A stretch of DNA of 24,000 nucleotides from Planctomycetota bacterium (lineage in GTDB: Bacteria > Planctomycetota > UBA1135 > UBA2386), in contig JBCCGH010000020.1 in assembly GCA_039029375.1 (NCBI GenBank), positions 26,409 to 50,408 on the forward strand. The letters are read 5' to 3'. The notes under the pieces are model-generated. The model worked only from the letters and a program-made list of their open reading frames with translations, did no database searches and was not told where the DNA came from. The position numbers were made by a program, and so were the translations under genes. Positions 2-21,059 of the stretch are shown here, piece by piece (position 1 is the stretch's first letter; every line of letters begins with the position of its first letter).

Positions 2-226
2 GAGCCGCGGGTCTGGTTCGATTTCGATACCGCGCGCGGCGACGTCGAACGCCGCCTGAGCGTGCTGACCGGCTGGGTCCTGCAGGCGCGCAGTCAGGGG
101 ATCGAATTCGGGCTGCGGCTGCCGGGCCAGGAACTGGCCCACGGCCTGGGCGAGGCTCACACGACCGCGGCCCTCGAACGCATCGCGCTCTATGGCCTCG
201 ACGGCGCCCGCGGCGAGCCCGGCTAG
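2..226 (+). CDS. C-terminal fragment of an upstream operon gene, possibly DUF58-family; 5' end lies outside the window
   Basis: Frame 2 is open from the window edge (EPRVWFDFDTARGDVERRLSVLTGWVLQARSQGIEF...) and ends at TAG 224-226. That stop overlaps the GTG start of the next gene (TAGTG). The family assignment rests only on the common MoxR-DUF58-transglutaminase operon context. Confidence 0.35.
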   Translation, partial: EPRVWFDFDTARGDVERRLSVLTGWVLQARSQGIEFGLRLPGQELAHGLGEAHTTAALERIALYGLDGARGEPG

Positions 227-2337: not shown

Positions 2338-2373
2338 ATCCCGTTTCGCTCCCAAGTGCGGCGGTGATCTAAC

Positions 2374-2820
2374 GTGGCGGTGCGACGAACCCCCTGCGTC
2401 GGCATCTGCTCCACCACCTACGGCGATCTGGTGTGTCGGGGCTGCAAGCGCTTCGCCCACGAAGTTACCGGCTGGAACGGCTTCAGCGAGGCCCAGCGCG
2501 ACACGATTCGCATGCGGCTGCAGGAACTGCGCGATGGCGCGGTGCGCGAGACGCTGCCCGCGATGGATGCTGACGCGCTGATGCAGCTTTCCCGCGAGCG
2601 CGGGCTCGATCCGGAGCAGGGGGCGGCGTCGCTCGCGTACGTCGTCCTGCGCCTGGCGCTGAACGAGGCGGACCTCGTTCGCCAGGCCGGACTGACCCTG
2701 CCGGCGGATCTGGACGGCGACGGCGTGCTCGAGACGCTGCAGCGCATCGATCGGCTGTTTCTAGAGCGCTCGTCGGCCTACTACGAGCGCGCCTTCAAGA
2801 CGCCGCTGTCGCCGGCGTGA
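2374..2820 (+). CDS. DUF1289-like Cys-rich protein with a C-terminal extension
   Basis: The N-terminus PCVGICSTTYGDLVCRGCKRFAHEVTGW matches the DUF1289 pattern (C-x-G-x-C ... C-x-G-C-x-R ... E ... W). GTG start. Its stop overlaps the miaE GTG start (GTGA). Confidence 0.6.
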   Translation: MAVRRTPCVGICSTTYGDLVCRGCKRFAHEVTGWNGFSEAQRDTIRMRLQELRDGAVRETLPAMDADALMQLSRERGLDPEQGAASLAYVVLRLALNEADLVRQAGLTLPADLDGDGVLETLQRIDRLFLERSSAYYERAFKTPLSPA

Positions 2821-3476
2821 ACGCGCGCGCGATCCCCGGTCTTGGCGAGATCCGCGAGTTCCTGCGGGTCCCCACGCCGCAGCGCTGGGTCAGCGCCGCG
2901 CTAGCGGACCTCGAGCTGCTTCTGATCGACCACGCAAACTGCGAGAAGAAGGCGGCGGGCACGGCGCTCAGTCTCCTCATGCGCTACGTCGATCGGCCCG
3001 AGCTGCTGCAGCAGCTGTCGCGGCTCGCGCGCGAAGAACTGCGCCATTTCGAACAGGTTGCGGCGCTGCTGAGCGCGCGTGGGATCGAATATCGGCACAT
3101 CGGCGCCGCCCGCTACGCGGGCGAACTGCGGCGGCTCGTCGCGTCCGACGAACCCTGGCGCCTGGTCGACACGCTGCTGGTTGGTGCGATCGTCGAGGCC
3201 CGGTCCTGCGAGCGCTTTGCGCTCGTCGCCGACGCGCTGGAACCGCTCGACCCCGAGCTCGCAGAATTTTACCGCCGCCTTCTCGATTCCGAGGCGCGCC
3301 ATTACGCGGGCTACCTCGCGCTGGCGCGACAGTATGCGCCCGAGGCAGACGACCCGACCGACGGGACGGTGGACGGCCGGCTCGCGAGGCTGCTTGCGCG
3401 CGAGGCCGAACTCGTCGTGGCAGGGGATAGCGAGCTGCGGTTTCATTCCGGGCCGCCGGAGCGAGCAACGGGCTAA
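2817..3476 (+). CDS. miaE: tRNA-(ms2io6A)-hydroxylase
   Basis: 219 aa with a di-iron four-helix signature: LIDHANCEKKAA, EELRHFEQV, EARSCERF and LDSEARHY (paired E...ExxH motifs typical of MiaE). Confidence 0.85.
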   Translation: MNARAIPGLGEIREFLRVPTPQRWVSAALADLELLLIDHANCEKKAAGTALSLLMRYVDRPELLQQLSRLAREELRHFEQVAALLSARGIEYRHIGAARYAGELRRLVASDEPWRLVDTLLVGAIVEARSCERFALVADALEPLDPELAEFYRRLLDSEARHYAGYLALARQYAPEADDPTDGTVDGRLARLLAREAELVVAGDSELRFHSGPPERATG

Positions 3477-3521
3477 ACCCTCGTCGGGCGCGATGTGCGG
3501 TTGCCGCGGTCTATTCCCGGT

Positions 3522-4253
3522 CTATTCAGCCAGCAGGGCAAGGGGCGCGCACCGCAGCCGCCACGTTTGCTCTGTACCGCGCTGCTCCGACTCCAGCCAC
3601 CAGCCGCAACGCTCCCAGGCCCCCAATGTGTAGCGATCCCAGTCCGACGAGCGCTCAATGCCTGGCCGGTGGGTGTGTCCATGCACCAGGACCCGCACGG
3701 CGTGCGTCGCGCAGGTTGTGCTTACGGTAGCCGCGTTCACGTCCATGATGTTGTCCGCCTTGAAGGCGTTGGCCTCGCGGCTGGCCGCGCGCAGCGCGTC
3801 GCCCATCGCGCGCCGCTCGGCGATGGGCTTAGCCAGCGTCTCACGCCGCCACTCGGGACTGTGCAGGACGGTGCGCAGCTGTTGATAGGCCGCGTCATCG
3901 GTGCACAGCGTGTCGCCGTGGCACACGAGCGTTCCGTCCTCAAGCCGCGCAACGTCGCCCAGCAGCTCGATTCCCGTGCCGCGCGCAAACGTATCGCCAA
4001 CGAGAAAGTCGCGATTGCCGACCAGAAAGCTGATGCGCGCGGTCGCGCTGGCCTCGCTTAGCGCCGCGCGCGCGCGGCGCGCCAGCGGCGCGTCGTCGTC
4101 GTCGCCGATCCACATCTCGAACAGATCGCCCAGCAGATAGATCTCGTCCGCGCTGCGGGCAGCGCGGCGCAGCCAGCCGAGGAACGCCGCCGTGCGCAGC
4201 TCGTGCTCGGCGCCGTCGTCTAGATGCACATCGGAGGCGAACCAGCGCTGCAT
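3522..4253 (-). CDS. lpxH: UDP-2,3-diacylglucosamine pyrophosphohydrolase
   Basis: Metallophosphoesterase motifs are present: FASDVHL, YLLGDLFEMWIGDDD, GNRDFL and VLVHGHTHRP. I start it at the internal ATG 4253 (MQRWFASDVHL) instead of the longest ORF start at 4352, which gives about 243 aa. Confidence 0.85.
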   Translation of the reverse strand: MQRWFASDVHLDDGAEHELRTAAFLGWLRRAARSADEIYLLGDLFEMWIGDDDDAPLARRARAALSEASATARISFLVGNRDFLVGDTFARGTGIELLGDVARLEDGTLVCHGDTLCTDDAAYQQLRTVLHSPEWRRETLAKPIAERRAMGDALRAASREANAFKADNIMDVNAATVSTTCATHAVRVLVHGHTHRPGIERSSDWDRYTLGAWERCGWWLESEQRGTEQTWRLRCAPLALLAE

Positions 4254-4293
4254 CAGCGCGCGCTCGCCGCAGGTCGCCTGGTTGGTGCTTGGC

Positions 4294-5151
4294 CTATGAC
4301 GTACGGGCTTCCGAGGCCTCGGCAGCCTGCAGCGTGTTCTGCAGCACGCCAATGCGCGTCATCGGACCGACGCCGCCAGGAACCGGGGTAATCCATCCCG
4401 CACGCTCCACGGCGGTGTCGAAATGCACGTCGCCCTGCAGCCGGCCGCCTTCGCGCGTGATGCCGATATCGATGACCACACTGCCGGGCTTGATCCAGGC
4501 GCCGGGAATCAGGTTCGGTTTGCCGACGGCGCTGACCAGGATGTCGGCGCGCTCGACGTGCTCGCGCAGATCCTTTGTGAAGCGATGGGCGATGTTGGTG
4601 GTGCAGCCGGCCAGCAGCAGCTCGAGGCTCATCGGTCTGCCCACGTGATTCGAGGCGCCGACGACCAGGGCGTCTTGCCCGCGGATGGGCCCGGTGAGCT
4701 CCAGTAGCTGCATCACGCCTTTCGGCGTAGCCGGGCGCAGACTGGGATCGCGCAGGGCCAGGCGCCCGACGTTGTAGGGGTGAAAGCCGTCGACGTCCTT
4801 GGCGGGCAGAATCAGCTCGACCAGGACATTGGCATCGATCTGCGGCGGTAGCGGCGCCTGCACGAGAATGCCGTCGATGGTCGGGTCTTCGTTCAGGGTC
4901 AGGATCATGTCGGCGACCTGCGCCTCGCTCGTGTCCTGGGCCAAGTGGCGCAGCTCTGACTTAAAGCCAACGGCGAGGCAGTCGTTGCGCTTGTGGCGCA
5001 CGTAGATCTCCGAAGCCGGATCGTCCCCAACCAGCAACACGGCGAGCCCCGGCGGACGCAACCCGGCGGCCGTGCGCTCGGCCACCTGCTGCTTGATGTC
5101 GGCTCTGAGGCTGGCGGCAAGTGCCGCGCCGTCGAGGATCTGTGCGCTCAA
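4294..5151 (-). CDS. folD: Bifunctional methylenetetrahydrofolate dehydrogenase/cyclohydrolase
   Basis: Sequence ([53 protein letters not shown] and [10 protein letters not shown]) is typical of FolD. I start it at TTG 5151, preceded by AGGAG, which gives 285 aa. The 334-aa ORF in the track over-extends the N-terminus. Confidence 0.9.
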
Positions 5152-5345
5152 CCGTTGACTCCTGAGGCTGGGGTAGGGGAAGGGGCGAATCGAGCGCGAG
5201 AGTCTACACCGCTTCCGCCTTGGCTGGCGCGCAGAGGCCATGGTGATGGGCTGGTCGACGGGCGCGCCACCACTCGAGCGCCGGCTGCGGCCGCCCAAGG
5301 CTGCTGGCCGCGGCTCAGCGGAAGCGAGCGGCGCGCGCGGCTCGA

Positions 5346-5374
5346 TTGACGGGTTTTCGGGCCGTCAGTATGAT
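5346..5374 (+). promoter_or_regulatory. Sigma70-type promoter for the tRNA operon
   Basis: TTGACG (5346-5351), a 17-nt spacer and TATGAT (5369-5374) are followed by a GC-rich discriminator. It lies about 90 nt upstream of tRNA-Pro. Confidence 0.55.
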
Positions 5375-5464
5375 CCGCCGGCTACGCCCCCTGTGGGGCG
5401 TGGAGCTGTCGCCAAATGCGTCTGAACGGTCTCTGTTGGTTCTCGGCAATGCGAAGCAGCGACT

Positions 5465-5541
5465 CGGGGTATAGCGCAGTCTGGTAGCGCGCCTGCTTTG
5501 GGAGCAGGATGTCGGGAGTTCGAATCTCTCTACCCCGACCA
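5465..5541 (+). tRNA. tRNA-Pro (anticodon TGG)
   Basis: The cloverleaf folds by hand: acceptor CGGGGTA/TACCCCG, D stem GCGC/GCGC, anticodon stem CCTGC/GCAGG with loop TTTGGGA, a TTCGAAT T-loop and an encoded CCA. Confidence 0.95.
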
Positions 5542-5599
5542 TTTCGCAGCAGGAGGTCTTCGCAGCAGGCGCCGAGCGTGGCTGGTCGCGACTCGCATT

Positions 5600-5676
5600 G
5601 CGCCCGTAGCTCAACTGGATAGAGCATCGGCCTTCTAAGCCGAGGGTTGAAGGTTCGAGTCCTTCCGGGCGTGCCA
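5600..5676 (+). tRNA. tRNA-Arg (anticodon TCT)
   Basis: Acceptor GCGCCCG/CGGGCGT, anticodon stem TCGGC/GCCGA with loop CTTCTAA, a TTCGAGT T-loop and an encoded CCA. Confidence 0.95.
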
Positions 5677-5854
5677 GTGCGAGGTACCCTGGCGAGACGT
5701 ACTGACTGTGAGCCGGGACGCTCTGCGGGAATCTCTTCGGAGACTCTCTTCGGAGGTGCTCTTTGGAGAAAGAGGAGACGAGGCGACAGAACAGTTCGCG
5801 ATCTTGGCCGATCTCTCGACAGGGAGCGCCGGGGTCGCTTGACCGATTTACGAT

Positions 5855-5931
5855 GGTGGACGTAGCTCAGTTGGTAGAGCCCCGGGTTGTGATCCCGGTG
5901 GTCGCGGGTTCGAACCCCGTCGTCCACCCCA
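5855..5931 (+). tRNA. tRNA-His (anticodon GTG) with the extra 5' G(-1); likely prophage integration target
   Basis: G(-1) plus acceptor GTGGACG/CGTCCAC, then C73 and CCA. Anticodon stem CCGGG/CCCGG has loop TTGTGAT, and the T-loop is TTCGAAC. Base composition changes abruptly right after the CCA. Confidence 0.95.
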
Positions 5932-6027
5932 TTAAATCAAGGACTTAGGTCCTAACTAGGTGGTGCCAAGGATGGCAACATTTGGCAACAATGGTGTTTT
6001 GGTGCCATTTTTGGGCACCGGGTTGTT

Positions 6028-6294: not shown

Positions 6295-7329
6295 CTATCG
6301 CCTCCTGTCCTCTAACTGGACGACCTCTCCGGTCGGTTTCTCCAGGCTCGCTGCCATGCCCTTCAGGGAGCTGGGCGCGAGATGCGCATAGCGCTCAGTC
6401 ACGTTGATGGTCGAGTGCCCCAGCCACTCCTTCACGAGGTAGAGATCGTGCCCGGCCTGAACCAGCCGGCTCGCGGTGGTGTGCCTGAGGGTGTGCAATG
6501 AGACATCCGGCAGCCCGGCCGCATTGCGGACCTTCGTGAACCTCTTCACGCACCACGACTTCGCACTGTCGCGCCGTGTGACGCTCGTGCGGACGCCTCG
6601 GGTGATCTCCAGCCACTCAGGGGTCACATGCAGACATCGCAGCGAGGCGGCCGCACGGGACGTCAGGGGCACGTTCCGGCTCTTGCCGTTCTTGGTGTCC
6701 TCCAGCCTCAGGTCGCCTCCTACGACGTCGCTGGGGCGGCTCTTGGTGATCTCCGAGAGTCGCGCGCCGGTGTCCAGCAGGACACACACGAGGTGATAGA
6801 TCGTAGGACTGATCTCCATCGCCTTGGCGAGGATGATCTGTTCCTCGTCGGCGTCGAGGTAGCGGACCTTGGTGTTGTTGACGGAGATGGTGGGGAAGGG
6901 AGGCTTGGAGGCGAGCTTGCGGCGCTTCACGGCGTGGTCAAGGGCGACCGACACGACGCCGAGGCGGGTGCGTATGGTGGCCGCCGCTAGGCCCTGCCCG
7001 CGTAGCTGGTTCACCCACTCCTCCAGCCAGATGTAGTCGATGGCTGTGCACTGCAACGAGCCGAACTGCTCGCGGATCACGCCGACGACATAGGAGAGCT
7101 GCTTGGCTCCCTTCTGCCGGTCCCACCGTGCGCGCCAGGTGTCGTCCAGCGCTTCCGCAAGGGTGTATCCGAGTGACGTCGAGCCCCGCCCGGCGAGAAT
7201 CTCCTGCGCGGCCAGTTGGGCCTCGCCCTTGTCCCGCTTTCCGGTGCTGATTCGGCGGCGCTTGCCGGACGTCGGGTCCGTGAAGGACAGCATGTAGATG
7301 CCATCCCGAGCCCGTGGTGTAAGCCTCAT
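6295..7329 (-). CDS. int: Tyrosine recombinase / phage integrase
   Basis: 344 aa with the catalytic signature: TGARLSEI (Arg), HTLRHTTASRLV (H-x-x-R) and GHSTINVTERYAHL (Tyr). A GGGAGGTGAGAC ribosome-binding site precedes the ATG. Confidence 0.95.
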   Translation of the reverse strand: MRLTPRARDGIYMLSFTDPTSGKRRRISTGKRDKGEAQLAAQEILAGRGSTSLGYTLAEALDDTWRARWDRQKGAKQLSYVVGVIREQFGSLQCTAIDYIWLEEWVNQLRGQGLAAATIRTRLGVVSVALDHAVKRRKLASKPPFPTISVNNTKVRYLDADEEQIILAKAMEISPTIYHLVCVLLDTGARLSEITKSRPSDVVGGDLRLEDTKNGKSRNVPLTSRAAASLRCLHVTPEWLEITRGVRTSVTRRDSAKSWCVKRFTKVRNAAGLPDVSLHTLRHTTASRLVQAGHDLYLVKEWLGHSTINVTERYAHLAPSSLKGMAASLEKPTGEVVQLEDRRR

Positions 7330-7973: not shown

Positions 7974-8002
7974 AAAAAAAATAGGCACCCCGAAGGGGTG
8001 CC
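7974..8002 (-). terminator. Rho-independent terminator ending the long accessory operon
   Basis: The minus-strand RNA reads GGCACCCC-UUC-GGGGUGCC followed by UAUUUUUUUU, about 16 nt after the stop of the 401-aa gene. A second hairpin (ACACGCCG/CGGCGUGU) spans the stop codon itself. Confidence 0.85.
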
Positions 8003-8018
8003 CGGAAGACACGCCGGA

Positions 8019-9224
8019 TTACGGCGTGTTGTCGATGACGCGGTGGTTCGGGAAGCGGACCTCCGCCAGCGTCTCCCCTCCCTGGGGGCGCTCGTCAATC
8101 TGGTCGCGGTCGCACGGCGCGGTGCGCATGTCGTGCTCGGTGCCATCGATCATCTCGAAGTCCGCCCAAGTTGGCAGACCAGGGTAGAACCACAGCGCGA
8201 AGGCGTTGAAGTTCGCCAGAGAGGACCACTTGGTGTCCCGCCCGACGTCGTTCATCGAGGGAATCTGCTGGTCCCCCGTGGTGCCGTCGATGTGGTAGAA
8301 CCCGTATGTCTTCATCGCCTGAAGCAGCGTGCGGGTGTGCTCCGTGCCGACGCCGGTGACGTCGAAGTCGGCCCGCAGGCGGAACCGCGCGCCGTACGGC
8401 AGGAAGCCGCCGGTGTCGTACTGGAGCGGCGAATGCTGCCCCGGCTCGATGAACTTCCAGCCCTCAGGGACGTCGTTCGGGAGCGTCATGGCGACCGCGT
8501 GGTTGATCTCCTGCGCGGCGAAGTCCTCCGCCGTGACGACGAACGGGGCGTACTCCGCGCCCGCCGCGTTGGGAGACGTGCAGCCCAGCCCACGACCGAC
8601 ACTCGCGGCGCTTAGGTCGTAGATCGCGGAGTTGCCGATGGTGATCTGCGAGAAGTCGCCCGTCTCGTAGTTCTGGACGAGGTACAGCTCCCGAAGGACG
8701 GGCGCGGTCGGGTCGCTCAAGTCCACCACATAGAGGTGGTTGTCGGCGGACTGGCCGAACTCCTGCACGGCGAACGTCGGATGGTAAGGCACCTGAACGT
8801 AGTCACTGTGCGGGTCGTAAGGGCCGTCCAGGTTGTACCCACTGGGTACACCCCACGTCACCTCGCTGGCGATCTCCGGCGTGATGACGTTGACGATGTG
8901 CCCGTAGCGGCCTTCCTCGGTCGCCGTGTCCTGCGACAGGTTGAAGTCCAGCCGGGGGAACCAATACTGACCACCGGAGCCGTCGAGGCCCCAGTTGTGG
9001 TCCCGCACGAGCGCGGTCTGCATCTGCGCCATGATGGCTGCCGAGTTCGGGTGAACGGGAAGGTCCGTGACCGGCGTGTTGTACCAGCTATCGGGGTGTC
9101 CGATCGTGCGTGCCAGCGCGGCAGGCGGATCGGTCGGATCAATGGGAGTCCCGCCGGCTTCTTCCAGCAGGACATTCAGGCGAGCCACCAGTTCGTTGAT
9201 GGCGTTTACTCGTAGTGTGGTCAT
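8019..9224 (-). CDS. Hypothetical 401-aa protein, possibly a virion-associated or polysaccharide-active enzyme
   Basis: Long ORF with an ACGGAG ribosome-binding site. The short helical N-terminus (MTTLRVNAINELVARLNVLLEE) resembles the N-termini of the neighbouring large protein and of the second fibre protein. No catalytic motif is recognised with confidence. Confidence 0.75.
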   Translation of the reverse strand: MTTLRVNAINELVARLNVLLEEAGGTPIDPTDPPAALARTIGHPDSWYNTPVTDLPVHPNSAAIMAQMQTALVRDHNWGLDGSGGQYWFPRLDFNLSQDTATEEGRYGHIVNVITPEIASEVTWGVPSGYNLDGPYDPHSDYVQVPYHPTFAVQEFGQSADNHLYVVDLSDPTAPVLRELYLVQNYETGDFSQITIGNSAIYDLSAASVGRGLGCTSPNAAGAEYAPFVVTAEDFAAQEINHAVAMTLPNDVPEGWKFIEPGQHSPLQYDTGGFLPYGARFRLRADFDVTGVGTEHTRTLLQAMKTYGFYHIDGTTGDQQIPSMNDVGRDTKWSSLANFNAFALWFYPGLPTWADFEMIDGTEHDMRTAPCDRDQIDERPQGGETLAEVRFPNHRVIDNTP

Positions 9225-9238
9225 TGCGACTCCGTGGG

Positions 9239-11143
9239 TCAGGCTGCGGCGGGGGCTGCGCCGAGTTCGGTCCAGCGCGTGGGGAAGGCCATGAAGGCGT
9301 GGTCGGTTCCTTGGTCAGAGATGACCGCGAACCATGCGTCCTCCGAGGCGTACTTGACGCCCTGCGGCGTCTCGACTTCCTCGTTGGGGATGAGCACCGG
9401 GTGCGTCGCGCCGTGGCTGAAGTTCGTACCGCCGGGCGGGACAGTCGCCTCCGGCGTGACTCCGTCAGGATTCCACGGGTTCACCATGCAGGTGCCTTCC
9501 CAGTGGCGTGCAGTGCCGTTGTAGTAAGTGTTCTCGGGCCGCTGGAAGTCCAACATCTGACCGTATAGGCCCTGAAGCCCTTGGCCCATCTTGGCCGCGT
9601 CCCAGTCAGTGTGTGGGACGTATGGCTTGCCGTCGCTGGCCCGGACACCCGGCCGCGTGTAGCAGTCCGGCTGGCGGAAGCCAATGCCCGGCTGGGAATC
9701 AGCGAACGCGAGGATTTTCGCGGTGCGTGATGCGATGACGTCCGGGTCGCTGCCCAGTCCATTCGCGGGAAGTTGCAGCCAATATTCGCCGCCGCGCTGG
9801 TTGATCTCGCCAGTGAGGTCGAGAAGGTAGTCGAGGTAGCGATCGAAGCCGCTGTCAACGCCGATCGTGCCGGTGTTGTAGTTGGCGTCGTTGTAGGCGT
9901 TGTCCTGCGTGCTGCCGGGACTGCCGAGAGCCAGTTCGCCCTTGAAGCCGATGGACTCCACCATAGGTTGCGTATCGGCCCACTCCGCGAGGCGGATCGC
10001 CACGGCGCGGAAGCGATTGCGGACAACGGTGCCGGCGGGGGTCGTGTCCCACAGCCGCGCGAGGGCGCGGTTCTTGCCGGTGGTGCGAACGAACCAATGG
10101 ACTGAGTTCGGATCGCCAGCGAGGTCCGACGGGACCGCCATGATGGGGTTCGACGGAGTCTCAGGGAAGACACCCGCGAACTGGTTGTTGGCCTGCGGAT
10201 CAACAACGACGGACACGAGGTAGCCGCTGTCGATGTATGCCTGAATGACACCCGTGAACAGCTCGTTCGGGACGCGCTCAAGCTCGCGCCAGTTGAACCG
10301 GAGGCGGACGCCCTTGACGTAGGGCAACCAGCGATCCTCGGCGTACCATCGGCTTGAGATGCGAGCCAGGGTTTCCTCATAGGTGGGGAAGTCGAGGCTG
10401 CCCCAGTTGGTCTCACCGTTGGCCCAAAGGCCGGGGTTCCAGCGGAAGGTTCGCGGGCCGCCGCCGACTGGGACTTCCGCCACCGGCGCGGTCGGATCGG
10501 AGCTGAGACTCTCGGCGTTCCCTTGGCCGTCGGTGAAGGCGGTAGACACGCGGAGCGCTTGGCCGACATCCGCCGCTGAAGTCTGATAGCTCGCCGCAGT
10601 CGCGCCGGAGATCGGCGTCGAGTCGGTCGCGCCATACCACCACTGGTAGCTCAGCGGGCCGACGCCTTCGGCGTCCTGCGCGTCTACCGTGGCGGTCAGA
10701 AGGACGCCGGCGGTGGGGTTCAGGTCGTCAATGGTGACGGTCCCGGTGGCAGGCGTGTTCTCGCGACTAACGGGCGCAGTGTCGGCCGACTCACGGACGT
10801 AGGCGTTACCCTGGCCGTCGGTGAAGCTCGCAACCACGCGCAGCGCGAAGCCTTCGTCAGAGGGCATCACTACATACGTCGAGGCGGTGCCGCCGGGGAT
10901 GTCTTGGCCGGCTCGTTGCCAGCGGTAGGTGATACCGGCGGGGATACCGTCGGGATCGTAGATGGTCGAAATAACGGACAGCGTTTCGCCTACGCGTGGG
11001 GCGGTGTTGCTGACCCGCACGGTGCCGGTCGGAAGGGTATCTCCGATGGGATCAGGTGCCGGGTTCGACTCACTGTAGATGTCAGTGCGTCGGAGTTGCC
11101 GGAGAATCCCAAGCACCTCTAGGTTGAGGTCTCGATTGGACAT
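9239..11143 (-). CDS. 634-aa protein with two tandem Ig-like repeats and a large C-terminal enzyme-like domain; candidate tailspike or depolymerase
   Basis: Two internal repeats of about 85 aa are visible (GTVRVSNTAPRVGETL...YRWQRAGQDIPGGTASTYVV...FTDGQGNAYV and GTVTIDDLNPTAGVLL...YQWWYGATDSTPISGATAASYQT...FTDGQGNAESL). About 400 aa of non-repetitive sequence follow. The enzyme function is inferred, not shown. Confidence 0.75.
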   Translation of the reverse strand: MSNRDLNLEVLGILRQLRRTDIYSESNPAPDPIGDTLPTGTVRVSNTAPRVGETLSVISTIYDPDGIPAGITYRWQRAGQDIPGGTASTYVVMPSDEGFALRVVASFTDGQGNAYVRESADTAPVSRENTPATGTVTIDDLNPTAGVLLTATVDAQDAEGVGPLSYQWWYGATDSTPISGATAASYQTSAADVGQALRVSTAFTDGQGNAESLSSDPTAPVAEVPVGGGPRTFRWNPGLWANGETNWGSLDFPTYEETLARISSRWYAEDRWLPYVKGVRLRFNWRELERVPNELFTGVIQAYIDSGYLVSVVVDPQANNQFAGVFPETPSNPIMAVPSDLAGDPNSVHWFVRTTGKNRALARLWDTTPAGTVVRNRFRAVAIRLAEWADTQPMVESIGFKGELALGSPGSTQDNAYNDANYNTGTIGVDSGFDRYLDYLLDLTGEINQRGGEYWLQLPANGLGSDPDVIASRTAKILAFADSQPGIGFRQPDCYTRPGVRASDGKPYVPHTDWDAAKMGQGLQGLYGQMLDFQRPENTYYNGTARHWEGTCMVNPWNPDGVTPEATVPPGGTNFSHGATHPVLIPNEEVETPQGVKYASEDAWFAVISDQGTDHAFMAFPTRWTELGAAPAAA

Positions 11144-11194
11144 TACGCAATGTTTCCTTTTGGGAAAAGGAGGGGAGGGTTCGGACGAGTGGTT

Positions 11195-11288
11195 GCCTCA
11201 TCAGCGACCGGGGACCACCCGGCCGGACGCTCACACCCCCGAAGTCAGCGAAACTTCTAGGAGGGCGTGGGGGCGTGAGCGTTTCGGC
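11195..11288 (-). ncRNA. Hammerhead ribozyme, type II topology (stem II open)
   Basis: Minus-strand RNA from 11288 to 11195 reads GCC-GAA-ACGCUCACGCCCCC-[ACGCCCUCCUA GAAGU UUCGCUG ACUUC]-GGGGGUGUGAGCGU-C^CGGCCGGG-UGGUC-CCCGGUCG-CUGAUGA-GGC. The full core is present: CUGAUGA, GAA, the A15.1-U16.1 pair, the G10.1-C11.1 pair and C17 in a GUC triplet. Stem III has 14 bp and stem I has 8 bp. The open stem II has only 3 bp (GGC/GCC). Confidence 0.8.
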
Positions 11289-11289
11289 T

Positions 11290-11484
11290 TTACTGATAGT
11301 CCTCCACCAGCTCGCCATCAGCGTCGAAGATAGCTGCGGCGTGTAGAGGAGAGTTGGAGTAGGCGAGGGCGGCTCCATGAGCGAGCGTGTGGTGATCGAA
11401 TACACCTTCGAGCGTGATCGAGTTGTCGGTGTCCACCGGAGCATGGGCCAGGCGGACCTTCACGGTGTAGGACGTGGGGTTCAT
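11290..11484 (-). CDS. Hypothetical 64-aa protein
   Basis: ORF with a GAGGAGAA ribosome-binding site upstream of the ATG. Its TAA stop lies 2 nt before the type II hammerhead. Confidence 0.6.
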   Translation of the reverse strand: MNPTSYTVKVRLAHAPVDTDNSITLEGVFDHHTLAHGAALAYSNSPLHAAAIFDADGELVEDYQ

Positions 11485-11577
11485 CGTGCAGTTCTCCTCG
11501 TGTGTTCAACTTCAAGTAATTCATCCGGTTGACTTTCGGTTTCCCTGAGCCACCGGAGGAGTGCGGAGATTTGGCAG

Positions 11578-11859
11578 TTAGTCATTGAAAACCACCTCGC
11601 CGTTGTCGTCGTAGCGCTTAAGGGTTTCTTGAAGTTCGCCGTAGGTGGGCATTGAGTCTCCGGTCGCGTTGCCTAGTTCTTCGTGGAGCCTTGCCCCAAG
11701 AAGCGATAAGCTATGCCGGCTAGCCTGCCCGCTACACCTATCGATACTGGTGAGGTAGTCGCCCACCGCACAAGTGCTCCACATGGCATGATTAATACGG
11801 CACGCTGGCGGCTGCGCGTTCACGAACTCACGGAAGCCCGCAAGGGTTGGTTCAGTCAT
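11578..11859 (-). CDS. Hypothetical 93-aa protein
   Basis: Its ATG overlaps the stop of the pentapeptide-repeat gene (ATGACTGA, an 8-nt overlap), implying translational coupling. Confidence 0.6.
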   Translation of the reverse strand: MTEPTLAGFREFVNAQPPACRINHAMWSTCAVGDYLTSIDRCSGQASRHSLSLLGARLHEELGNATGDSMPTYGELQETLKRYDDNGEVVFND

Positions 11860-12604
11860 CGTCTTGTCCCTCCTGCGCTTCTAGCTTGGTCTTCAGCCAT
11901 TCCACCGCATAGACGTACATGTCGCCTATCGCACGGTCGCCTACGTAGCCCCTGCCCCAATGGTCGAGTGCTTCGGGGATCGTGAAATCTCGGCAGCCAG
12001 ACCGGATGCGGTACTCGCCGTCGATTTCTACCGCGTGCGGGAAGGCGTACCCGCGAGGGTCTTGAAGGGGTAGCAGATAGAAGCCTTTTGCATCGATCAG
12101 GTTTGCACCGCGCAGGTTTGCATCGATCAGGTTTGCACCGATCAGGTTTGCACCGCTCAGGCTTGCATCGCTCAGGCTTGCATAGCGCAGGTTTGCACCG
12201 CGCAGGTTTGCATCGCTCAGGCTTGCATAGCGCAGGTTTGCACCGCGCAGGTTTGCATAGCGCAGGTTTGCACCGCGCAGGTTTGCATCGCTCAGGTTTG
12301 CATCGCTCAGGCTTGCACCGCTCAGGCTTGCACCGCTCAGGAGTGCACCGCTCAGGCTTGCATAGCGCAGGCTTGCATAGCGCAGGTTTGCACCGCGCAG
12401 GCTTGCACCGCTCAGGCTTGCACCGCTCAGGAGTGCACCGCTCAGGCTTGCATAGCGCAGGCTTGCATAGCGCAGGTTTGCACCGCGCAGGTTTGCATCG
12501 CGCAGATCTGAACCGCTCAGGTCTGCACTGCGTAGGTTTGCACCGCGCAGGTCTGCATCGCGCAGGTTTGCATCGGGGCCTATGTCATATCCGTTAACTT
12601 TCAT
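11852..12604 (-). CDS. Pentapeptide-repeat protein with a non-repeat C-terminal domain
   Basis: About 32 consecutive A(D/N)LxX pentapeptides (ANLRDADLRGANLRSADLSGSDLRDANLRGANLRYASL...). The C-terminal domain follows (GFYLLPLQDPRGYAFPHAVEIDGEYRIRSGCRDFTIPEALDHWG). I start it at ATG 12604 (MKVNGYDIG), preceded by GAGGAG, not at the TTG at 12622. Confidence 0.9.
   Translation of the reverse strand: MKVNGYDIGPDANLRDADLRGANLRSADLSGSDLRDANLRGANLRYASLRYASLSGALLSGASLSGASLRGANLRYASLRYASLSGALLSGASLSGASLSDANLSDANLRGANLRYANLRGANLRYASLSDANLRGANLRYASLSDASLSGANLIGANLIDANLRGANLIDAKGFYLLPLQDPRGYAFPHAVEIDGEYRIRSGCRDFTIPEALDHWGRGYVGDRAIGDMYVYAVEWLKTKLEAQEGQDDD
12311..12490. repeat. Perfect 90-bp tandem duplication inside the pentapeptide-repeat gene
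   Basis: Base-by-base comparison shows 12311-12400 is identical to 12401-12490. Each copy encodes 30 aa, which is six pentapeptide units. It lies within a 15-nt periodic coding repeat spanning about 12088-12570. Confidence 0.95.
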
Positions 12605-12707
12605 CGTCTTGTTTCTCCTCAAGTCGTCGTAACGTGACCTTCACCAGCACCCCCAACGCGATCAGCGCGAGGATGCCGGGGAGGTGTTGGATTAGTTGTG
12701 CTGTCAC
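12594..12707 (-). CDS. Possible 37-aa single-pass membrane peptide, not in the ORF track
   Basis: Hand translation gives MTAQLIQHLPGILALIALGVLVKVTLRRLEEKQDDES. The GTG start sits immediately after the upstream TAA (TAAGTG), and the 3' end overlaps the pentapeptide-gene ATG by 11 nt. There is no clear Shine-Dalgarno. The call is supported mainly by analogy to the three membrane-peptide genes at 16.1-16.9 kb. Confidence 0.3.
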   Translation of the reverse strand: MTAQLIQHLPGILALIALGVLVKVTLRRLEEKQDDES

Positions 12708-13190
12708 TTACAGCGTTGCATTCGCCAGGACGGCCCCACGCCGCTCACCACCCGCGACAAACTCCCGCACGAACTTGCGTTGGTCTGTAGGAAACCGCCC
12801 ATGGCGGTTGTGGTAGATCGACTGTCCGGCTGTGTCGGCAGTGATGATTGCGGCCGCTTCGTCGGCGAACACACCAAGACTGTCGAGAACGCGCCGGGCG
12901 TGTTCGCTGGCGGTTGCTATCTCGCCCTCGAAGTCAGTGCCATAGTCGTGGGCAAGGTGAATAGCGTCATGCCACGCGCGAAAGGCGACGTTAGTTGCGC
13001 GGTCGCGGTAGATGGTTTGCTCGCAGTGGTCGCCGCTTACGGGCAGCGAATCAACACCTAGGATGTTGCCCTCGTCTCGCCATGCTTTGAGTTCAGCAAA
13101 CGTGTCCGGCGCATTGGGTGAAATGTGATGCTTAGGCGCTTGCGCGTGGATGAACTGTTCAAGCGCCTGTAGTGCTGTTTGTGGTCGCAT
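12708..13190 (-). CDS. Hypothetical 160-aa protein
   Basis: I start it at ATG 13190 (MRPQTALQALEQF...), which has AGGAGG 8 nt upstream. The ORF-track start at 13211 lacks a ribosome-binding site. It is the first cistron after the type III hammerhead. Confidence 0.7.
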   Translation of the reverse strand: MRPQTALQALEQFIHAQAPKHHISPNAPDTFAELKAWRDEGNILGVDSLPVSGDHCEQTIYRDRATNVAFRAWHDAIHLAHDYGTDFEGEIATASEHARRVLDSLGVFADEAAAIITADTAGQSIYHNRHGRFPTDQRKFVREFVAGGERRGAVLANATL

Positions 13191-13223
13191 TGAGTTGCCC
13201 TCCTGAGGCATTCGGTCTGTGCT

Positions 13224-13274
13224 GACGTTTCGTCCTTTCGGACTCGTCAGGCCCGGTGCACACCGGACGACGTC
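13224..13274 (-). ncRNA. Hammerhead ribozyme, type III topology (stem III open)
   Basis: Minus-strand RNA from 13274 to 13224 reads GACGUC^GUCCGGU-GUGC-ACCGGGC-CUGACGA-GUCC-GAAA-GGAC-GAA-ACGUC. All conserved core nucleotides are present: C3 U4 G5 A6 N7 G8 A9, G12 A13 A14, A15.1-U16.1, G10.1-C11.1 and C17 in GUC. Stem I has 7 bp, stem II has 4 bp with a GAAA tetraloop, and stem III has 5 bp. Confidence 0.85.
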
Positions 13275-13333
13275 GAGTGTCCCGCAAGTGAAGCACTACG
13301 GGACATGTGGAAGTAGATGGACGCGGCTATGCC

Positions 13334-13756
13334 TCAGCGAACCCAGTAGGTAACACCGTCGAAATCAATCGCTGAGTAATCGTATTGAAGATGCTGCGCG
13401 GCACGCGTCCAATCAATGCAGTTGTTCGGCCACGTCACATTGCTATCAATCAGGCCGCAGTCTTCCGCAAGCTGCTCTGCGTACTCTTCAAAGTAGCTAT
13501 CTCGAACCAGCGCTTCGCCGTGTACCCAGTCTGCCGCGTAGTCTTCGCCCTCGGCGGCGAGCGCTTCGAGCGCATCCAGTTCGCACCCTTCGTCGGTGTG
13601 GGCGTTGTGCCAGTCCACCTCGGGAGCCATATCAAACTCGCCACCGTTCTCCACGACTTCGTCAATCCAGTCGTCCCGAATTTCGCGGAGTTCTTCGATA
13701 CGCTCAATAACGTCGCGGCTATCAATCACGTCGTCCATGTTGGAAATTGCGTTCAT
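13334..13756 (-). CDS. Highly acidic ArdA-like protein (putative antirestriction DNA mimic)
   Basis: 140 aa from ATG 13756, which has a GGAGGT ribosome-binding site, and very rich in Asp/Glu. The C-terminal part YFEEYAEQLAEDCGLI...CIDWTRAAQHLQYDYSAIDFDGVTYWVR resembles, from memory, the ArdA C-terminus (...YFDYEAYARDLFLDSFTFIDGHVFRR). The N-terminal half does not resemble ArdA domain 1. Confidence 0.55.
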   Translation of the reverse strand: MNAISNMDDVIDSRDVIERIEELREIRDDWIDEVVENGGEFDMAPEVDWHNAHTDEGCELDALEALAAEGEDYAADWVHGEALVRDSYFEEYAEQLAEDCGLIDSNVTWPNNCIDWTRAAQHLQYDYSAIDFDGVTYWVR

Positions 13757-13968
13757 GCTGCTACCTCCGCGCGTCGTAATTCCGACCGCCACGCCTGTCC
13801 GCGCCAGCCGTCTTGGGCCTCGATCTCGTACATACCCTCGCCTTCGTAATCGAACTCATCCTTTCTAAGACGCCGCAGAACGCTGATGCGCTTGCCGCGA
13901 TGCGCGTTGTACTCAGGCAGGGATGTGAATCCCTCGGGGTAGTCGAATATGTAGTCGAATTTCCTCAT
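13753..13968 (-). CDS. Hypothetical 71-aa protein
   Basis: An AGGAGGG ribosome-binding site precedes the ATG. Its stop overlaps the ArdA-like start (ATGA). It is the first cistron after the long leader. Confidence 0.6.
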   Translation of the reverse strand: MRKFDYIFDYPEGFTSLPEYNAHRGKRISVLRRLRKDEFDYEGEGMYEIEAQDGWRGQAWRSELRRAEVAA

Positions 13969-13969
13969 C

Positions 13970-14021
13970 GTGTTTCGCCCTCCTAAGGCACATCAGTACG
14001 GCTGGAAGTAGCCGCAGACAC
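13970..14021 (-). ncRNA. Hammerhead-like motif (type III architecture) with U instead of A at core position 9
   Basis: Minus-strand RNA from 14021 to 13970 reads GUGUC^UGCGGCU-ACUUCC-AGCCGUA-CUGAUGU-GCC-UUAGGAG-GGC-GAA-ACAC and is followed by G-AUG of the 71-aa gene. Stem I has 7 bp, stem II has 3 bp with the Shine-Dalgarno in its loop, and stem III has 4 bp. GUC, GAA and the A15.1-U16.1 pair are all present. Only A9 deviates (plus-strand base 13990). Confidence 0.45.
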
Positions 14022-14224
14022 TTTCCCGCAGCCGCTGTCACTATCCGTCCTGATGTGGACATGTGGAAGTGTCGGCGCGGGCCTCGGTGTGTGTCGCTGA
14101 ACGCCTCGCCTGCTAGGGTTCGCAGGGTCTCAGGGTGCGGACTCTTTTTGACTGTGGACCGGCTGGGTCGCTGCGCTGTCTCGGGGAGTCGTTCCGATGC
14201 GCCGTTAGTGGCGACTTAAAGAAA

Positions 14225-14253
14225 AGCTTAAATAATTCCACATGCAGTGTCAA
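14225..14253 (-). promoter_or_regulatory. Sigma70-type promoter flanked by CATGTGG(T/A)A operator-like repeats
   Basis: On the minus strand, TTGACA (14253-14248) is followed by a 17-nt spacer and TAAGCT (14230-14225). CATGTGGTA lies immediately upstream of the -35 box and CATGTGGAA lies inside the spacer. Confidence 0.5.
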
Positions 14254-14283
14254 TACCACATGCGGAATTAATTAAGATTCTCC

Positions 14284-14790
14284 CTAGCGAGTCGCTACCA
14301 GGCTGCCGATGGCGTTGCCGCCTACGCCGGTCACTACGTGAGACACACGCGCTACAGTGAGCGCGTGGTGTAGTGTGGTACCGGGTTTCCTCATGCGCCT
14401 CGTGCAGGCCGCCCATTGACTCTTAGAGAGACCATAGCGCTCTCGGAGTTCAACGGAGGTGATCGTATCGCCGGGCTTCATGGTCTCGATGTGGGACGCT
14501 ATGAGGTCCGAGGGGCCGCCTTTGCGAGCACGCGGGATGTGCTGTAAGGGGCTGGTAGGTGGCGGCTCTGCGGCCATTACTGGAACTCCCACGGACGAAT
14601 CGACGGAGCCAGTAGAGTTGTTGCCTACAGCAATGTCGTAGATGTTGTGGAGGTCAAACCAGAGCATGTCCGTGTCTATCGGACGCTGCTCGTCTTCTGC
14701 ATGAAGGTTGCGTATGTACGCTGAGATTGTCGCTAAGCGTTGTGCGGGAGACAGGGATGGAGAAGGGCGCAGGGTTGCGTAAGTGTTCAT
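14284..14790 (-). CDS. Hypothetical 168-aa protein with a possible C-terminal helix-turn-helix
   Basis: ORF downstream of the 14854-14882 promoter. The segment ITSVELRERYGLSKSQWAACTRRM looks HTH-like. The ribosome-binding site is weak (TAGGA). Confidence 0.55.
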   Translation of the reverse strand: MNTYATLRPSPSLSPAQRLATISAYIRNLHAEDEQRPIDTDMLWFDLHNIYDIAVGNNSTGSVDSSVGVPVMAAEPPPTSPLQHIPRARKGGPSDLIASHIETMKPGDTITSVELRERYGLSKSQWAACTRRMRKPGTTLHHALTVARVSHVVTGVGGNAIGSLVATR

Positions 14791-14853
14791 GGTGTTGGTC
14801 CTAAGTTGCCGGGCAACGCCCCGGAGCGCGTGACTTTCCTAAGCCACGAGAGA

Positions 14854-14882
14854 ACCATACTCCCTACGTTTTGTTATGTCAA
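14854..14882 (-). promoter_or_regulatory. Sigma70-type promoter
   Basis: On the minus strand, TTGACA (14882-14877) is followed by a 17-nt spacer and TATGGT (14859-14854). It lies in an AT-rich spacer directly upstream of the 168-aa gene. Confidence 0.55.
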
Positions 14883-15174: not shown

Positions 15175-15483
15175 ATGGATTTAAAACTGATTGTGGTTGC
15201 CGGGACATTACTGGCCGGCTGCTCCGAGCCTAGCCCCTATGAGATATCCAGTTCGGGCTCAGGGACTGGGCAGGCGGCCTGGATACTGAACAAGCGCACG
15301 GGAGCTGTGAGGGCGTGCCTGCTCGACCTGCAAAGACAGTCTTCCCGTTTGCCCTACCTTACCGACGAGAAAGGCATTGCCTGCACTGGATGGGCCAACC
15401 CAAAGACACAGCGCGAGCAGGCGCAGGAGATTCGCGAGTTGATCCGAGAGACCGAAAGGGAAAAGCATCAGGGTTCCCCTTAA
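15175..15483 (+). CDS. Lipoprotein; the only plus-strand prophage gene, candidate moron
   Basis: The signal peptide has a lipobox (MDLKLIVVAGTLLAGC). It is divergent from the RHH-like gene and flanked by low-GC sequence. The Shine-Dalgarno is weak, which lowers confidence. Confidence 0.55.
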   Translation: MDLKLIVVAGTLLAGCSEPSPYEISSSGSGTGQAAWILNKRTGAVRACLLDLQRQSSRLPYLTDEKGIACTGWANPKTQREQAQEIRELIRETEREKHQGSP

Positions 15484-19604: not shown

Positions 19605-19794
19605 GGCCGGCCTCCATGTACTTCACGATGAGATCGAGCTTCGCGTTGATCGCGGCGACTTGCGCCGGCAACGATTCGAGCCTCTCGACGTCCTTCTCCA
19701 GGTTCGCGATGCGGGTGCGGTGCGCGCCCCAGCCAGCACCGCCGGCGAGTAGACCGGCGATGATCGTGTAGGCGGATTCAAACTGCTCGAACAT
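19597..19794 (-). CDS. Small membrane protein, holin-like (T7 gp17.5 position); an i-spanin-like role is not excluded
   Basis: 65 aa from ATG 19794, which has an AGGGAGG ribosome-binding site 5 nt upstream and a TGATG overlap with the upstream stop. One TM segment (AYTIIAGLLAGGAGWGA) is followed by a coiled-coil-like tail. The TTG start at 19818 in the track lacks a ribosome-binding site. Confidence 0.45.
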   Translation of the reverse strand: MFEQFESAYTIIAGLLAGGAGWGAHRTRIANLEKDVERLESLPAQVAAINAKLDLIVKYMEAGRE

Positions 19795-21059
19795 CAGCGC
19801 CTCCCTGCGATTCGGCAATGGGTGTCGGCGGGTATGATCGTCACGGTGTTCGCTGCGATCGTCTCGTTGGAGTCAATCATCAGGAGAGCCAGCGGGACCC
19901 AGCCGGAGTTGAACTCGGGGTTCTTGTGCTCAGACCGCCACCACTCCGGCAGCGCGCTCTCAGCGGCCACCGCCCCGGTGTTATGCGAGACGGCTCCGAG
20001 CTGGACCGCGAGGGTCCCGTCGGAGACCTTCATCCAGATGGCCTTGACGTCGGCGTTGTTGCCGCCGTTGCTGCCCCGAGAGCCGCCGTTGTCGTAGTCC
20101 GGTTGCACGGAGGAGAACAGCTCGGTTGCGCCACTGTTCAGCGCCGCGCCGGTCCTCAGGTAAACCTGGAACGCCGTCGGGTCTGCGGGCGTGATCGCCT
20201 GCTCCTGCCAGTCGCTCCCGTCCCAGTGATGCAGGGAGCCGGGGAGGACCGCCACGTCGGAGCCGGAGACAACCACGTCTAGACCTTGGCGCACATAGGA
20301 GAGCGCTGCTGAGATTTCGTCAGGGATACCGCCGGCGTCGGCGTGAGTGTGCCCGAGGGCGGAATACACCGCGTCGTGGTTGTGCCCTGAGTCGGCGTAG
20401 GTGCCGTCGTGGTTGTGCGTGCCCGCCGCAAACCCAGTGTGCGTGTGTGCGACGTCGGCATAGTCCGCGTCATGGTCGTGATCGGCTGAGGCGAAGTCGC
20501 CGTCGTGAACGTGACTGATCGACGCGTACTCCGCGTGAACGTGGCCCGTCTCCGAGTAGATTCCCGCATGGTCATGCGCCAGCGCCGCGTAGGCCGCGTC
20601 GTGATCGTGTGCGATCGCGGAGTAGTCTGCGTCGTGATTGTGATCGCCGCCCGGCGGGTGAACGTGCCCAATCCCCGCGTAGCGGAGATCAAAGACCGGG
20701 GTGTGATCGTGATCGGAGAACGCGTAGACATCGTCGTGGTGGTGCGCATAGGCCGCATAGAGATCGTCGTGAACGTGCTCCACCGGGGCATGAATCCCGG
20801 CGTGGTCGTGCGCCTTCGCCGCGTATGCGTCGTTGTGGTTGTGTACCAAGCGCGCGTACCGGATGTCATGCTGGTGATCGCGGTCCGCATATTGATCCGC
20901 GTGCGAGTGACCGAGCTTCGAGAAGACGATGTCCAGGGGCGGCTGGGGTGAGCCAGCCGTGATCCCTGCGTTCCAGGCTTCGATGACTTCCACCGCATCG
21001 CGGTAGCGCTGAAGGAGGTCGTTGAGCTGTGCTGCCAGCTCGGCGTTCGATACGTCCAT
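19794..21059 (-). CDS. Second tail-fibre protein with 18 His-x-His repeats and a C-terminal globular domain
   Basis: 421 aa. Residues about 50-240 carry 18 HxH motifs at a period of roughly 10-11 residues (GHSHADQYA, DHQHDIRYA, VHNHNDAYA, AHDHAGIHA, EHVHDDLYA ... GHTHADAGG). The start overlaps the stop of the gp17-like fibre gene (TAATG). Confidence 0.8.
   Translation of the reverse strand: MDVSNAELAAQLNDLLQRYRDAVEVIEAWNAGITAGSPQPPLDIVFSKLGHSHADQYADRDHQHDIRYARLVHNHNDAYAAKAHDHAGIHAPVEHVHDDLYAAYAHHHDDVYAFSDHDHTPVFDLRYAGIGHVHPPGGDHNHDADYSAIAHDHDAAYAALAHDHAGIYSETGHVHAEYASISHVHDGDFASADHDHDADYADVAHTHTGFAAGTHNHDGTYADSGHNHDAVYSALGHTHADAGGIPDEISAALSYVRQGLDVVVSGSDVAVLPGSLHHWDGSDWQEQAITPADPTAFQVYLRTGAALNSGATELFSSVQPDYDNGGSRGSNGGNNADVKAIWMKVSDGTLAVQLGAVSHNTGAVAAESALPEWWRSEHKNPEFNSGWVPLALLMIDSNETIAANTVTIIPADTHCRIAGRR

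Follow-up and report, generated by a model that had tools for sequence, protein, structure and literature searches.

What do three hammerhead ribozyme motifs do between the genes of an integrated phage? The question is raised by positions 7974–14882 of a 24,000 nucleotide (nt) stretch of DNA (the window; contig JBCCGH010000020.1, positions 26,409–50,408), which comes from an uncultured metagenome-assembled genome (MAG) labelled Planctomycetota. The region is an accessory gene block on the minus strand. An initial annotation of the sequence placed hammerheads at 14017, 13269 and 11226, viewed them as dividing one operon of a T7-like prophage into three gene blocks, and compared them with the RNase III sites of T7. 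The answer that appears best from the sequence is that the motifs probably form a cis-acting hammerhead cluster, which splits the transcript of an accessory (moron or early-type) block of an integrated T7-like phage in the same arrangement as that of Perreault et al. (2011). The locus is a further example of an arrangement first described and tested in 2011 and is not a new kind of system.

The three positions are the C17 cleavage nucleotides of minus-strand motifs, termed here HH1, HH2 and HH3:

13970–14021, minus strand: HH1, a type III hammerhead-like motif, cleavage predicted after C14017, stems I/II/III of 7/5/4 base pairs (bp)
13224–13274, minus strand: HH2, a canonical type III hammerhead found by descriptor, cleavage predicted after C13269
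11187–11289, minus strand: HH3, a type II hammerhead, Rfam RF02276 at 42.8 bits (E = 8e-6), cleavage predicted after C11226

The window was searched with the Rfam covariance models, first at the curated gathering thresholds (37 bits for Hammerhead_II, RF02276, and 48.5 bits for Hammerhead_3, RF00008) and then in a permissive scan (E ≤ 10). An explicit descriptor of the three hammerhead topologies was also used, which demands the core CUGANGA…GAAA, the A15.1-U16.1 pair, H17 and minimum stem lengths. The strict descriptor finds only HH2 and HH3 on both strands of the window, and tolerance of one core mismatch adds only HH1. All three motifs have three helices around the core with adjacent pairs intact; the invariant core, the A15.1-U16.1 pair and H17 are displayed together by HH2 and HH3 and not by HH1. 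In 150 dinucleotide-preserving shuffles of the window the strict descriptor gives 0.02 matches per window, against the 2 observed, which rules out a chance origin of HH2 and HH3. The one-mismatch core gives 0.29 matches per window by chance, and therefore HH1 is not significant when taken alone. Other ribozyme classes are absent from the window in the permissive Rfam scan.

HH3 is the only ribozyme in the window at curated Rfam thresholds. Its core CUGAUGA is at 11204–11198 and is followed by GAAA, the cleavage site is GUC, and stems I/II/III have 8/3/14 bp, with a 41-nt insert carried by stem III. The sequence and the Rfam alignment also show a 5-bp pseudoknot between GUGGU of loop I (11218–11214) and ACCAC of the 3′ tail (11193–11189). 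A pseudoknot of loop I with the 3′ tail is typical of type II hammerheads (PMC3088659).

HH2 has the core CUGACGA at 13250–13244, then GUCC-GAAA-GGAC and GAAA, a GUC site and stems I/II/III of 7/4/5 bp. The full read is GACGU-C^-[GUCCGGU GUGC ACCGGGC]-CUGACGA-[GUCC GAAA GGAC]-GAAA-CGUC. Rfam reports HH2 in the permissive scan at 13266–13222 with 23.9 bits (E = 0.46), which is below the 48.5 of RF00008; this low score is due to a visible misalignment of stems I and III by Rfam. The HH2 loops, GUGC and GAAA, offer no Watson-Crick option for a stem I-stem II contact.

HH1 is also below the Hammerhead_3 threshold, with a match at 14024–13967 of 27.3 bits (E = 0.049). CUUC of its loop I can pair with GGAG of loop II, as read from the sequence. 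Thus the hammerheads of the initial annotation are all present and on the minus strand, two of them canonical, and the third carries a change of the core nucleotide A9 to U. HH1 is best termed hammerhead-like. Its activity is doubtful on the evidence of the core, and it may be slow or dead.

All three motifs are within 2.8 kb on the coding strand, and they delimit blocks of 2, 5 and 2 open reading frames (ORFs), referred to below as blocks A, B and C. The preceding stop codon and the following ATG are 262 nt and 1 nt away for HH1, 59 nt and 33 nt for HH2, and 1 nt and 51 nt for HH3. The distance from the cleavage site to the next start codon is 48–82 nt for all three. These distances support intercistronic or 5′ untranslated region positions for the hammerheads.

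With respect to folding, the canonical structure of each isolated motif is 1.3–2.0 kcal/mol above the minimum free energy (MFE), tertiary contacts being uncounted. In a 121-nt context the canonical hammerhead fold is the MFE structure for HH1. The stable hairpins that the initial annotation saw beside the ends are borne out in silico: the predicted 3′ products of all three motifs start exactly at a hairpin of 7–8 bp, the long hairpin of stem III forms the end of the predicted 5′ product of HH3, and the 5′ product of HH2 is structured up to the cut.

HH1 has an additional property. The AGGAGG Shine-Dalgarno sequence of the 71 amino acid (aa) gene that follows is situated in its loop II and stem II (13970–13990, minus strand), and ACUUCC of loop I is complementary to AGGAGG; folding of the hammerhead could therefore mask the ribosome-binding site. 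A second complementarity is found at 13985–14052 (minus strand), where the upstream sequence CACAUCAGGACGG pairs with CCGUACUGAUGUG at 12 of 13 positions. CCGUACUGAUGUG spans the 3′ strand of HH1 stem I and the core, including the deviant U9. This anti-core pairing wins in a 110-nt context and is lost in the 121-nt context, and it is matched by 106 of 2000 shuffles. It was rejected as weak.

The phage type is well defined. Pfam and PHROG matches of the T7 type are found for the large terminase, a gp18-type small terminase, tail fibre, tube, nozzle, gp14 and a Gp10A-like capsid protein, and an integrase adjoins a tRNA gene:

6295–7329: integrase, phrog_1 (1.3e-51), next to tRNA-His

These virion and terminase matches, together with the integrase beside tRNA-His, uphold the T7-like prophage of the initial annotation, and they support the presence of a T7-like (Autographiviridae-type) virion and packaging module in an integrated phage. 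The prophage is also present as a second copy in an independent contig assembled from the SRA, which is 100% identical over 8.8 kb; Pfam analysis of the gene calls on that contig shows Gp10A-like, Tube, Phage_nozzle, T7_gp14, Phage_T7_tail, DNA_Packaging_2 and Terminase-T7. The terminase has matches in 2761 phage records, all of ≤57% identity, with podoviruses of about 40 kb at the top. A search with the window terminase gave nothing in genome contigs and only 28%-identical matches in viral contigs.

On the minus strand the gene order is internal virion protein, tail fibre, a His-rich 421-aa protein, and the small and large terminases. On the 3′ side of the terminases there are about 2 kb of small ORFs, an opposite-strand ORF at 15175–15483, the accessory block, and a strong terminator (8003–7974). 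Beyond the terminator are a 115-aa MarR-like regulator (phrog_9665), the integrase, and tRNA-His, tRNA-Arg and tRNA-Pro, and past the tRNAs are the chromosomal genes TgpA, MiaE and FolD. The accessory block is thus located between the terminase/small-ORF region and the regulator-integrase-tRNA junction.

The signals that could begin and end transcription of the block are as follows:

14854–14882, minus strand: promoter-like site P1, TTGACA-17-TATGGT, a 10/12 match to the consensus
14225–14253, minus strand: promoter-like site P2, TTGACA-17-TAAGCT, with a weak -10
7974–8003, minus strand: intrinsic terminator with a 9-bp stem of 7 G-C pairs followed by a T-run

Two sites of the form TTGACA-N17-TANNNT are found where 0.15 are expected. 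The two TTGACA promoters of the initial annotation are both in place; however, P2 fails a stricter scan. The co-directional block with a strong terminator is confirmed, and the terminator scan shows no further minus-strand terminator inside the accessory block.

From these observations a course of events can be proposed. The block would be transcribed in one direction up to the strong terminator. HH2 and HH3 would fold and cut themselves during synthesis of the RNA; HH1 would possibly do the same, more slowly or not at all. The first piece would carry the 168-aa gene, the second the 71-aa and ArdA-like genes, the third the 160-aa gene, the small peptide, the pentapeptide-repeat gene and the 93-aa and 64-aa genes, and the fourth the 634-aa and 401-aa genes. 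Downstream pieces would have a 5′-hydroxyl directly on a 7–8 bp hairpin, and upstream pieces a 2′,3′-cyclic phosphate near a hairpin. As a likely consequence, the stability and translation of each piece would be uncoupled from its neighbours and from the source promoter. What the sequence shows is the motifs, where they are placed, the type of phage and the predicted ends of the products; co-transcription, actual cleavage and effects on stability or protein ratios are what we infer for the locus. The comparison with the RNase III sites of T7 is apt and reasonable as an analogy, but it is not evidence about this locus.

The arrangement has clear precedents. Clustered hammerheads that flank genes in prophages were described by Perreault et al. 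(2011), who proposed processing of long phage transcripts (PMC3088659). Tandem hammerhead arrangements from three bacteria cleave in vitro, and for the triple arrangement of Agrobacterium tumefaciens, which lies around ardA and a further gene of unknown function, cleavage was seen both in vitro and in E. coli (PMC3088659). In three strains of Legionella, too, a hammerhead is found shortly before ardA, and the genes that are flanked differ between elements (PMC3088659). A 2019 review states that such ribozymes may process polycistronic transcripts into pieces that differ in stability or translation efficiency, that this is still unproven, and that most bacterial and phage hammerheads are functional orphans (PMC6765202). 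The initial annotation had viewed the organisation as possibly new. This cannot be maintained, as clustered prophage hammerheads, a triple set flanking ardA and the hypothesis of processing with differential stability are all published (PMC3088659, PMC6765202). The window is not itself one of the published loci, since none of the primers for A. tumefaciens C58 or Azorhizobium match it.

Recurrence was analyzed in 112 ArdA-like loci from viral and metagenome collections (645 kb). Strict hammerheads are present in 6 of the 112 loci, although Rfam supports only L002 and L016 among these and the rest are found by descriptor only. In all there are 11 strict hammerheads in the 645 kb, every one on the gene strand, where about 0.5 would be expected by chance, split between strands. 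In the prophage of the window itself, a further 10 kb of virion genes has no strict-core hammerhead; one relaxed-core type I match inside a 1146-aa virion-region gene is at chance level. The search for further hammerheads that the initial annotation had proposed is thus negative for these 10 kb of the prophage and positive for a few related loci. The ribozymes are recurrent but sporadic.

One of these loci, L077 (positions 1–1755 of a short metagenomic contig), displays five near-identical type II hammerheads, each before an ORF, and one of the ORFs is ArdA-like. Stem II (CUAGC/GCUAG) and the GUCAGCAAAC tail are conserved among them, whereas stem I covaries; stem III contains an internal loop. 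They escape the Rfam type II model at E ≤ 0.01.

A closer parallel, L037, from the Rhizobiales isolate AFS091568, was retrieved with a C58 ribozyme sequence from the primer table of PMC3088659. It has a T7-type terminase, a MarR-like regulator and an integrase with 45%, 32% and 28% identity, respectively, to those of the window, and a tRNA at the junction. In L037 only a few nt separate the end of a type III hammerhead from the ATG of a 77-aa gene, and a type II hammerhead (Rfam 42.4 bits) follows. The several topologies on which the initial annotation remarked are therefore not unusual in this backbone.

Several observations weigh against the preferred explanation. The HH1 core is CUGAUGU, in which U13990 replaces the invariant A9. 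The criteria of the 2011 reference survey disqualify any core change unless activity has been shown; the same survey considered core variants in prophage contexts to be worth testing. A literature search on the activity of A9U variants gave nothing useful. For HH2, the canonical fold in the 121-nt context is 3.7 kcal/mol above a competing CUGACG/CGUCAG helix. A repeated sequence motif upstream of HH1 and HH2, described below, could mark internal control sites. The closest ArdA-like relatives (62–74% identity) have no hammerheads, nor do the syntenic T7-like phages L006 and L009, and therefore the ribozymes are dispensable for these genes. Finally, the relatives contain no orthologous copies of HH1–HH3 in which covariation could be followed, and the sole other copy of the prophage is 100% identical.

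The best of the competing explanations is that the region comprises several transcription units with internal starts, in which the hammerheads trim or insulate 5′ leaders in the manner of RiboJ and do not separate cistrons. The two promoter-like sites inside the region agree with this, as does the closeness of each hammerhead to a downstream start codon, together with the long interval between HH1 and the preceding gene. By sequence, the type III ribozymes would remain attached to the downstream mRNA. The repeated motif is relevant here as well:

14057–14070, minus strand: exact 14-mer ACTTCCACATGTCC, copy 1, about 36 nt upstream of HH1
13301–13314, minus strand: 14-mer ACTTCCACATGTCC, copy 2, 27 nt upstream of HH2 and followed by a GUCCCG…CGGGAC hairpin

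Within the 14-mer is the 9-mer TTCCACWTG, which has 4 copies in the window where 0.2 are expected, all within 1.9 kb: at 15162 (minus), 14236–14244 (plus), 14068 (minus) and 13312 (minus). The first copy is in the divergent control region upstream of a 66-aa gene, the second is inverted in the P2 spacer, which holds an inverted copy of TTCCACATG, and the other two are inside the ACTTCCACATGTCC copies, i.e. 27–36 nt upstream of HH1 and HH2. TTCCACWTG is possibly an operator for a phage regulator. On the other hand, no sigma-70-like promoter was detected near the motif copies at HH1 and HH2 or upstream of HH3, and HH3 begins 1 nt past the preceding stop codon. Neither the 14-mer nor TTCCACWTG occurs upstream of the virion genes, which rules out a phage-polymerase promoter. 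Separate units with leader-trimming hammerheads are considered unlikely. A TCCACAT core is common to the window, C58 and L037 but is too short to be diagnostic.

It is also improbable that the hammerheads are passengers or relics from horizontally acquired cassettes, with little effect on expression now and HH1 as a decaying copy. The core substitution of HH1 and the sporadic occurrence of the ribozymes, which are absent from ArdA-like relatives of up to 74% identity and from L006 and L009, are in keeping with such an origin. The flanked genes differ between elements (PMC3088659), and the cargo of the window is rare and mosaic, with a chromosomal gene as the sole relative of its hydrolase. However, HH2 and HH3 keep perfect cores and full stems, HH3 has its tertiary pseudoknot in addition, and all hammerheads in the 645 kb of related loci are intergenic and on the coding strand, which argues for selection.

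A more far-reaching form of the transcript-splitting cluster can be imagined, for which the chances are small. In this lineage of temperate T7-like phages the hammerheads would be a modular, host-independent substitute for RNase III processing, accessory genes would be exchanged in ribozyme-delimited cassettes, HH1 would be retuned as a slow or conditional switch, and TTCCACWTG would tie the system to a phage regulator. If this were true, cleavage and the translation of the ArdA-like block would be linked through HH1, which has U9, a ribosome-binding site in the stem II loop and a 3′ end separated by 1 nt from the start codon.

Least probable by far is that paired ribozymes excise and ligate the intervening RNA into circular or spliced products, for although each block lies between two hammerheads of the same strand and ligation is among the reactions that hammerheads can catalyse (a possibility raised in PMC3088659), such products were sought by the 2011 authors and not detected (PMC3088659), and the blocks of the window are 0.7–3 kb mRNAs with ordinary ribosome-binding sites.

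Splitting of the accessory transcript by the cluster remains the preferred explanation, and the genes that would be separated are the following:

14284–14790, minus strand: 168-aa ORF between P1 and P2, upstream of HH1, no family match
13753–13968, minus strand: 71-aa ORF, no relatives found
13334–13756, minus strand: 140-aa acidic ArdA-like protein, phrog_25535 (2.8e-34) and phrog_2059, anti-restriction (3.6e-6)
12708–13190, minus strand: 160-aa ORF, phrog_7806, function unannotated
12594–12707, minus strand: 37-aa ORF with one hydrophobic segment, called solely as an ORF
11852–12604, minus strand: pentapeptide-repeat protein of the Qnr/MfpA-type repeat class, PF00805 (3e-53) and NCBIfam pentapeptide families
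11578–11859, minus strand: 93-aa ORF, no family match
11290–11484, minus strand: 64-aa ORF, no family match, stop codon 1 nt from HH3
9239–11143, minus strand: 634-aa protein, two Ig-like repeats and, after them, a glycoside-hydrolase-like domain (GH42 type)
8019–9224, minus strand: 401-aa protein, no Pfam domain, 54 relatives

The gene content of the three blocks agrees with the initial annotation, including the 37-aa hydrophobic ORF (12707–12594) that it had termed a membrane peptide. The 160-aa, 634-aa and 71-aa proteins have no viral relatives in the searches, and known defence-system models show no meaningful matches to the cargo.

The 140-aa protein itself has no Pfam match at E ≤ 1 and no PDB sequence match. 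However, PF07275 is matched by 11 of 24 of its relatives (best 1.1e-5), relatives with 72% identity to it carry this domain, and for some of these the name given at the source is antirestriction protein. On these sequence grounds it appears to be a divergent relative of the ArdA family.

The association of an ArdA-like gene with a pentapeptide-repeat gene closely behind it recurs in unrelated phage contigs. Such pairs are found in the window (11852–13756), L008 (6001–8297), L028 (6001–7203) and L124 (1656–3091). Two DNA-mimic-type proteins may travel as a pair. The pentapeptide gene is also a DNA repeat with a 15-nt period (window 11968–12642). The SRA assembly of the prophage breaks exactly in this repeat, and L036 and L038 end inside it.

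In block C, the C-terminal domain of the 634-aa protein has a sole relative among 5.8 billion proteins, a chromosomal GH42-annotated protein with 36% identity (L119, 8001–9443), which is encoded in a Pseudomonadota MAG from the same sample. This suggests a recent capture of the hydrolase-like domain by the phage. Relatives of the 401-aa protein are found in phages, and one (L126, 6515–7639) is inside a T7-type DNA-metabolism module. A confident structural model of the 401-aa protein (predicted local distance difference test score 80, predicted template modelling score 0.81) has no PDB fold match; it does resemble domains from minor-tail proteins of phages and from parallel beta-helix proteins (E as low as 1e-12, template modelling score about 0.5). 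For this protein family the location of a member in a DNA-metabolism module and the modelled tail-protein-like fold are conflicting hints. Block C looks like surface- or polysaccharide-acting cargo. The designation of the whole as a candidate anti-defence operon is overstated. It suits blocks A and B at best, through the ArdA-like and pentapeptide-repeat proteins only, and not block C, with its hydrolase-like domain and tail-protein-like fold.

Other features of the prophage can be mentioned. Within the phage part, the ORF at 15175–15483 (plus strand, 102 aa, no family match) is alone in lying on the opposite strand. A region of 86 bp separates it from the divergently oriented 66-aa gene, and this layout recalls a lysogeny switch; the 66-aa gene has a weak NikA-like match (E 0.0085) that is below the Pfam cut-off. 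The 421-aa protein on the 3′ side of the tail fibre (19794–21059, minus strand) has many His- and Asp-rich repeats (HxH, DHDH). Its gene carries the DNA repeat families D2 and D3, and its PHROG matches to tail fibres are weak. Concerning the host (window 1–5950), the MAG is labelled Planctomycetota, but the best terminase matches among those listed are phages of Proteobacteria. The Pseudomonadota MAG that holds the sole relative of the hydrolase domain points to the same question of labelling. The binning or taxonomic label of the MAG may be worth checking.

The value of the locus is as a tidy case, in which three motifs of two topologies occur with promoter-like sites and a terminator in a recognisable T7-type phage. 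A relative, T7, meets the same problem by means of the host RNase III. The locus is a possible system for comparison where the question is whether the stability of an mRNA, or its translation, is set by self-cleavage. It leaves the state of knowledge unchanged.

The known systems resemble the window to different degrees. RiboJ is an engineered type III hammerhead in a 5′ leader, which trims upstream RNA, so that the mRNA has a defined 5′ end and starts with a hairpin. The layout of HH1 and HH2 is the same, and an insulating effect in the window is putative.

In T7, the RNase III site R0.3 lies upstream of the anti-restriction gene. The T7 early precursor is about 7 kb, and the host RNase III cuts it at five sites into mono- and dicistronic mRNAs, which matters for the translation of several (PMC4858673). 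The T7 sites and the motifs of the window are alike in being intercistronic, in acting on polycistronic RNA of the host polymerase and in their position upstream of an anti-restriction gene, although in the window the cuts and the polycistronic RNA are predicted and the anti-restriction gene is putative. However, RNase III is a host protein that cuts double-stranded RNA and leaves a 5′-phosphate and a 3′-hydroxyl, whereas a hammerhead cuts itself and leaves a 5′-hydroxyl and a 2′,3′-cyclic phosphate. There is no homology between the two, and a positional equivalence is not demonstrable from sequence.

L077 resembles the window in having an ArdA-like gene bracketed by same-strand hammerheads and in single genes that each have a ribozyme before them. 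It differs in its five near-identical type II variants, which are contained in 1.75 kb. L037 is closer, as the backbone is homologous and both loci have a type III motif just before the ATG of a small gene and then a type II hammerhead. It differs in that two ribozymes flank one 77-aa gene, in the lack of ArdA-like, pentapeptide-repeat and hydrolase genes, and in the canonical core CUGAUGA of its type III hammerhead, unlike HH1.

The C58 locus of A. tumefaciens has the order tail … ardA … marR … integrase (PMC3088659). Its ribozymes, as seen from the primer sequences, are all of type II and two are near-duplicates, whereas the window has two of type III and one of type II. A palindrome, TCCACATGTGGA, is located 4 nt upstream of the second C58 hammerhead. 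The ArdA relative of the window is divergent and its cargo is larger, and cleavage, which has been shown for C58, is predicted in the window. The two loci are nevertheless alike in the main features, i.e. three same-strand hammerheads that flank an ardA-type gene together with a gene of unknown function, in prophages where tail, marR and integrase genes follow one another in this order.

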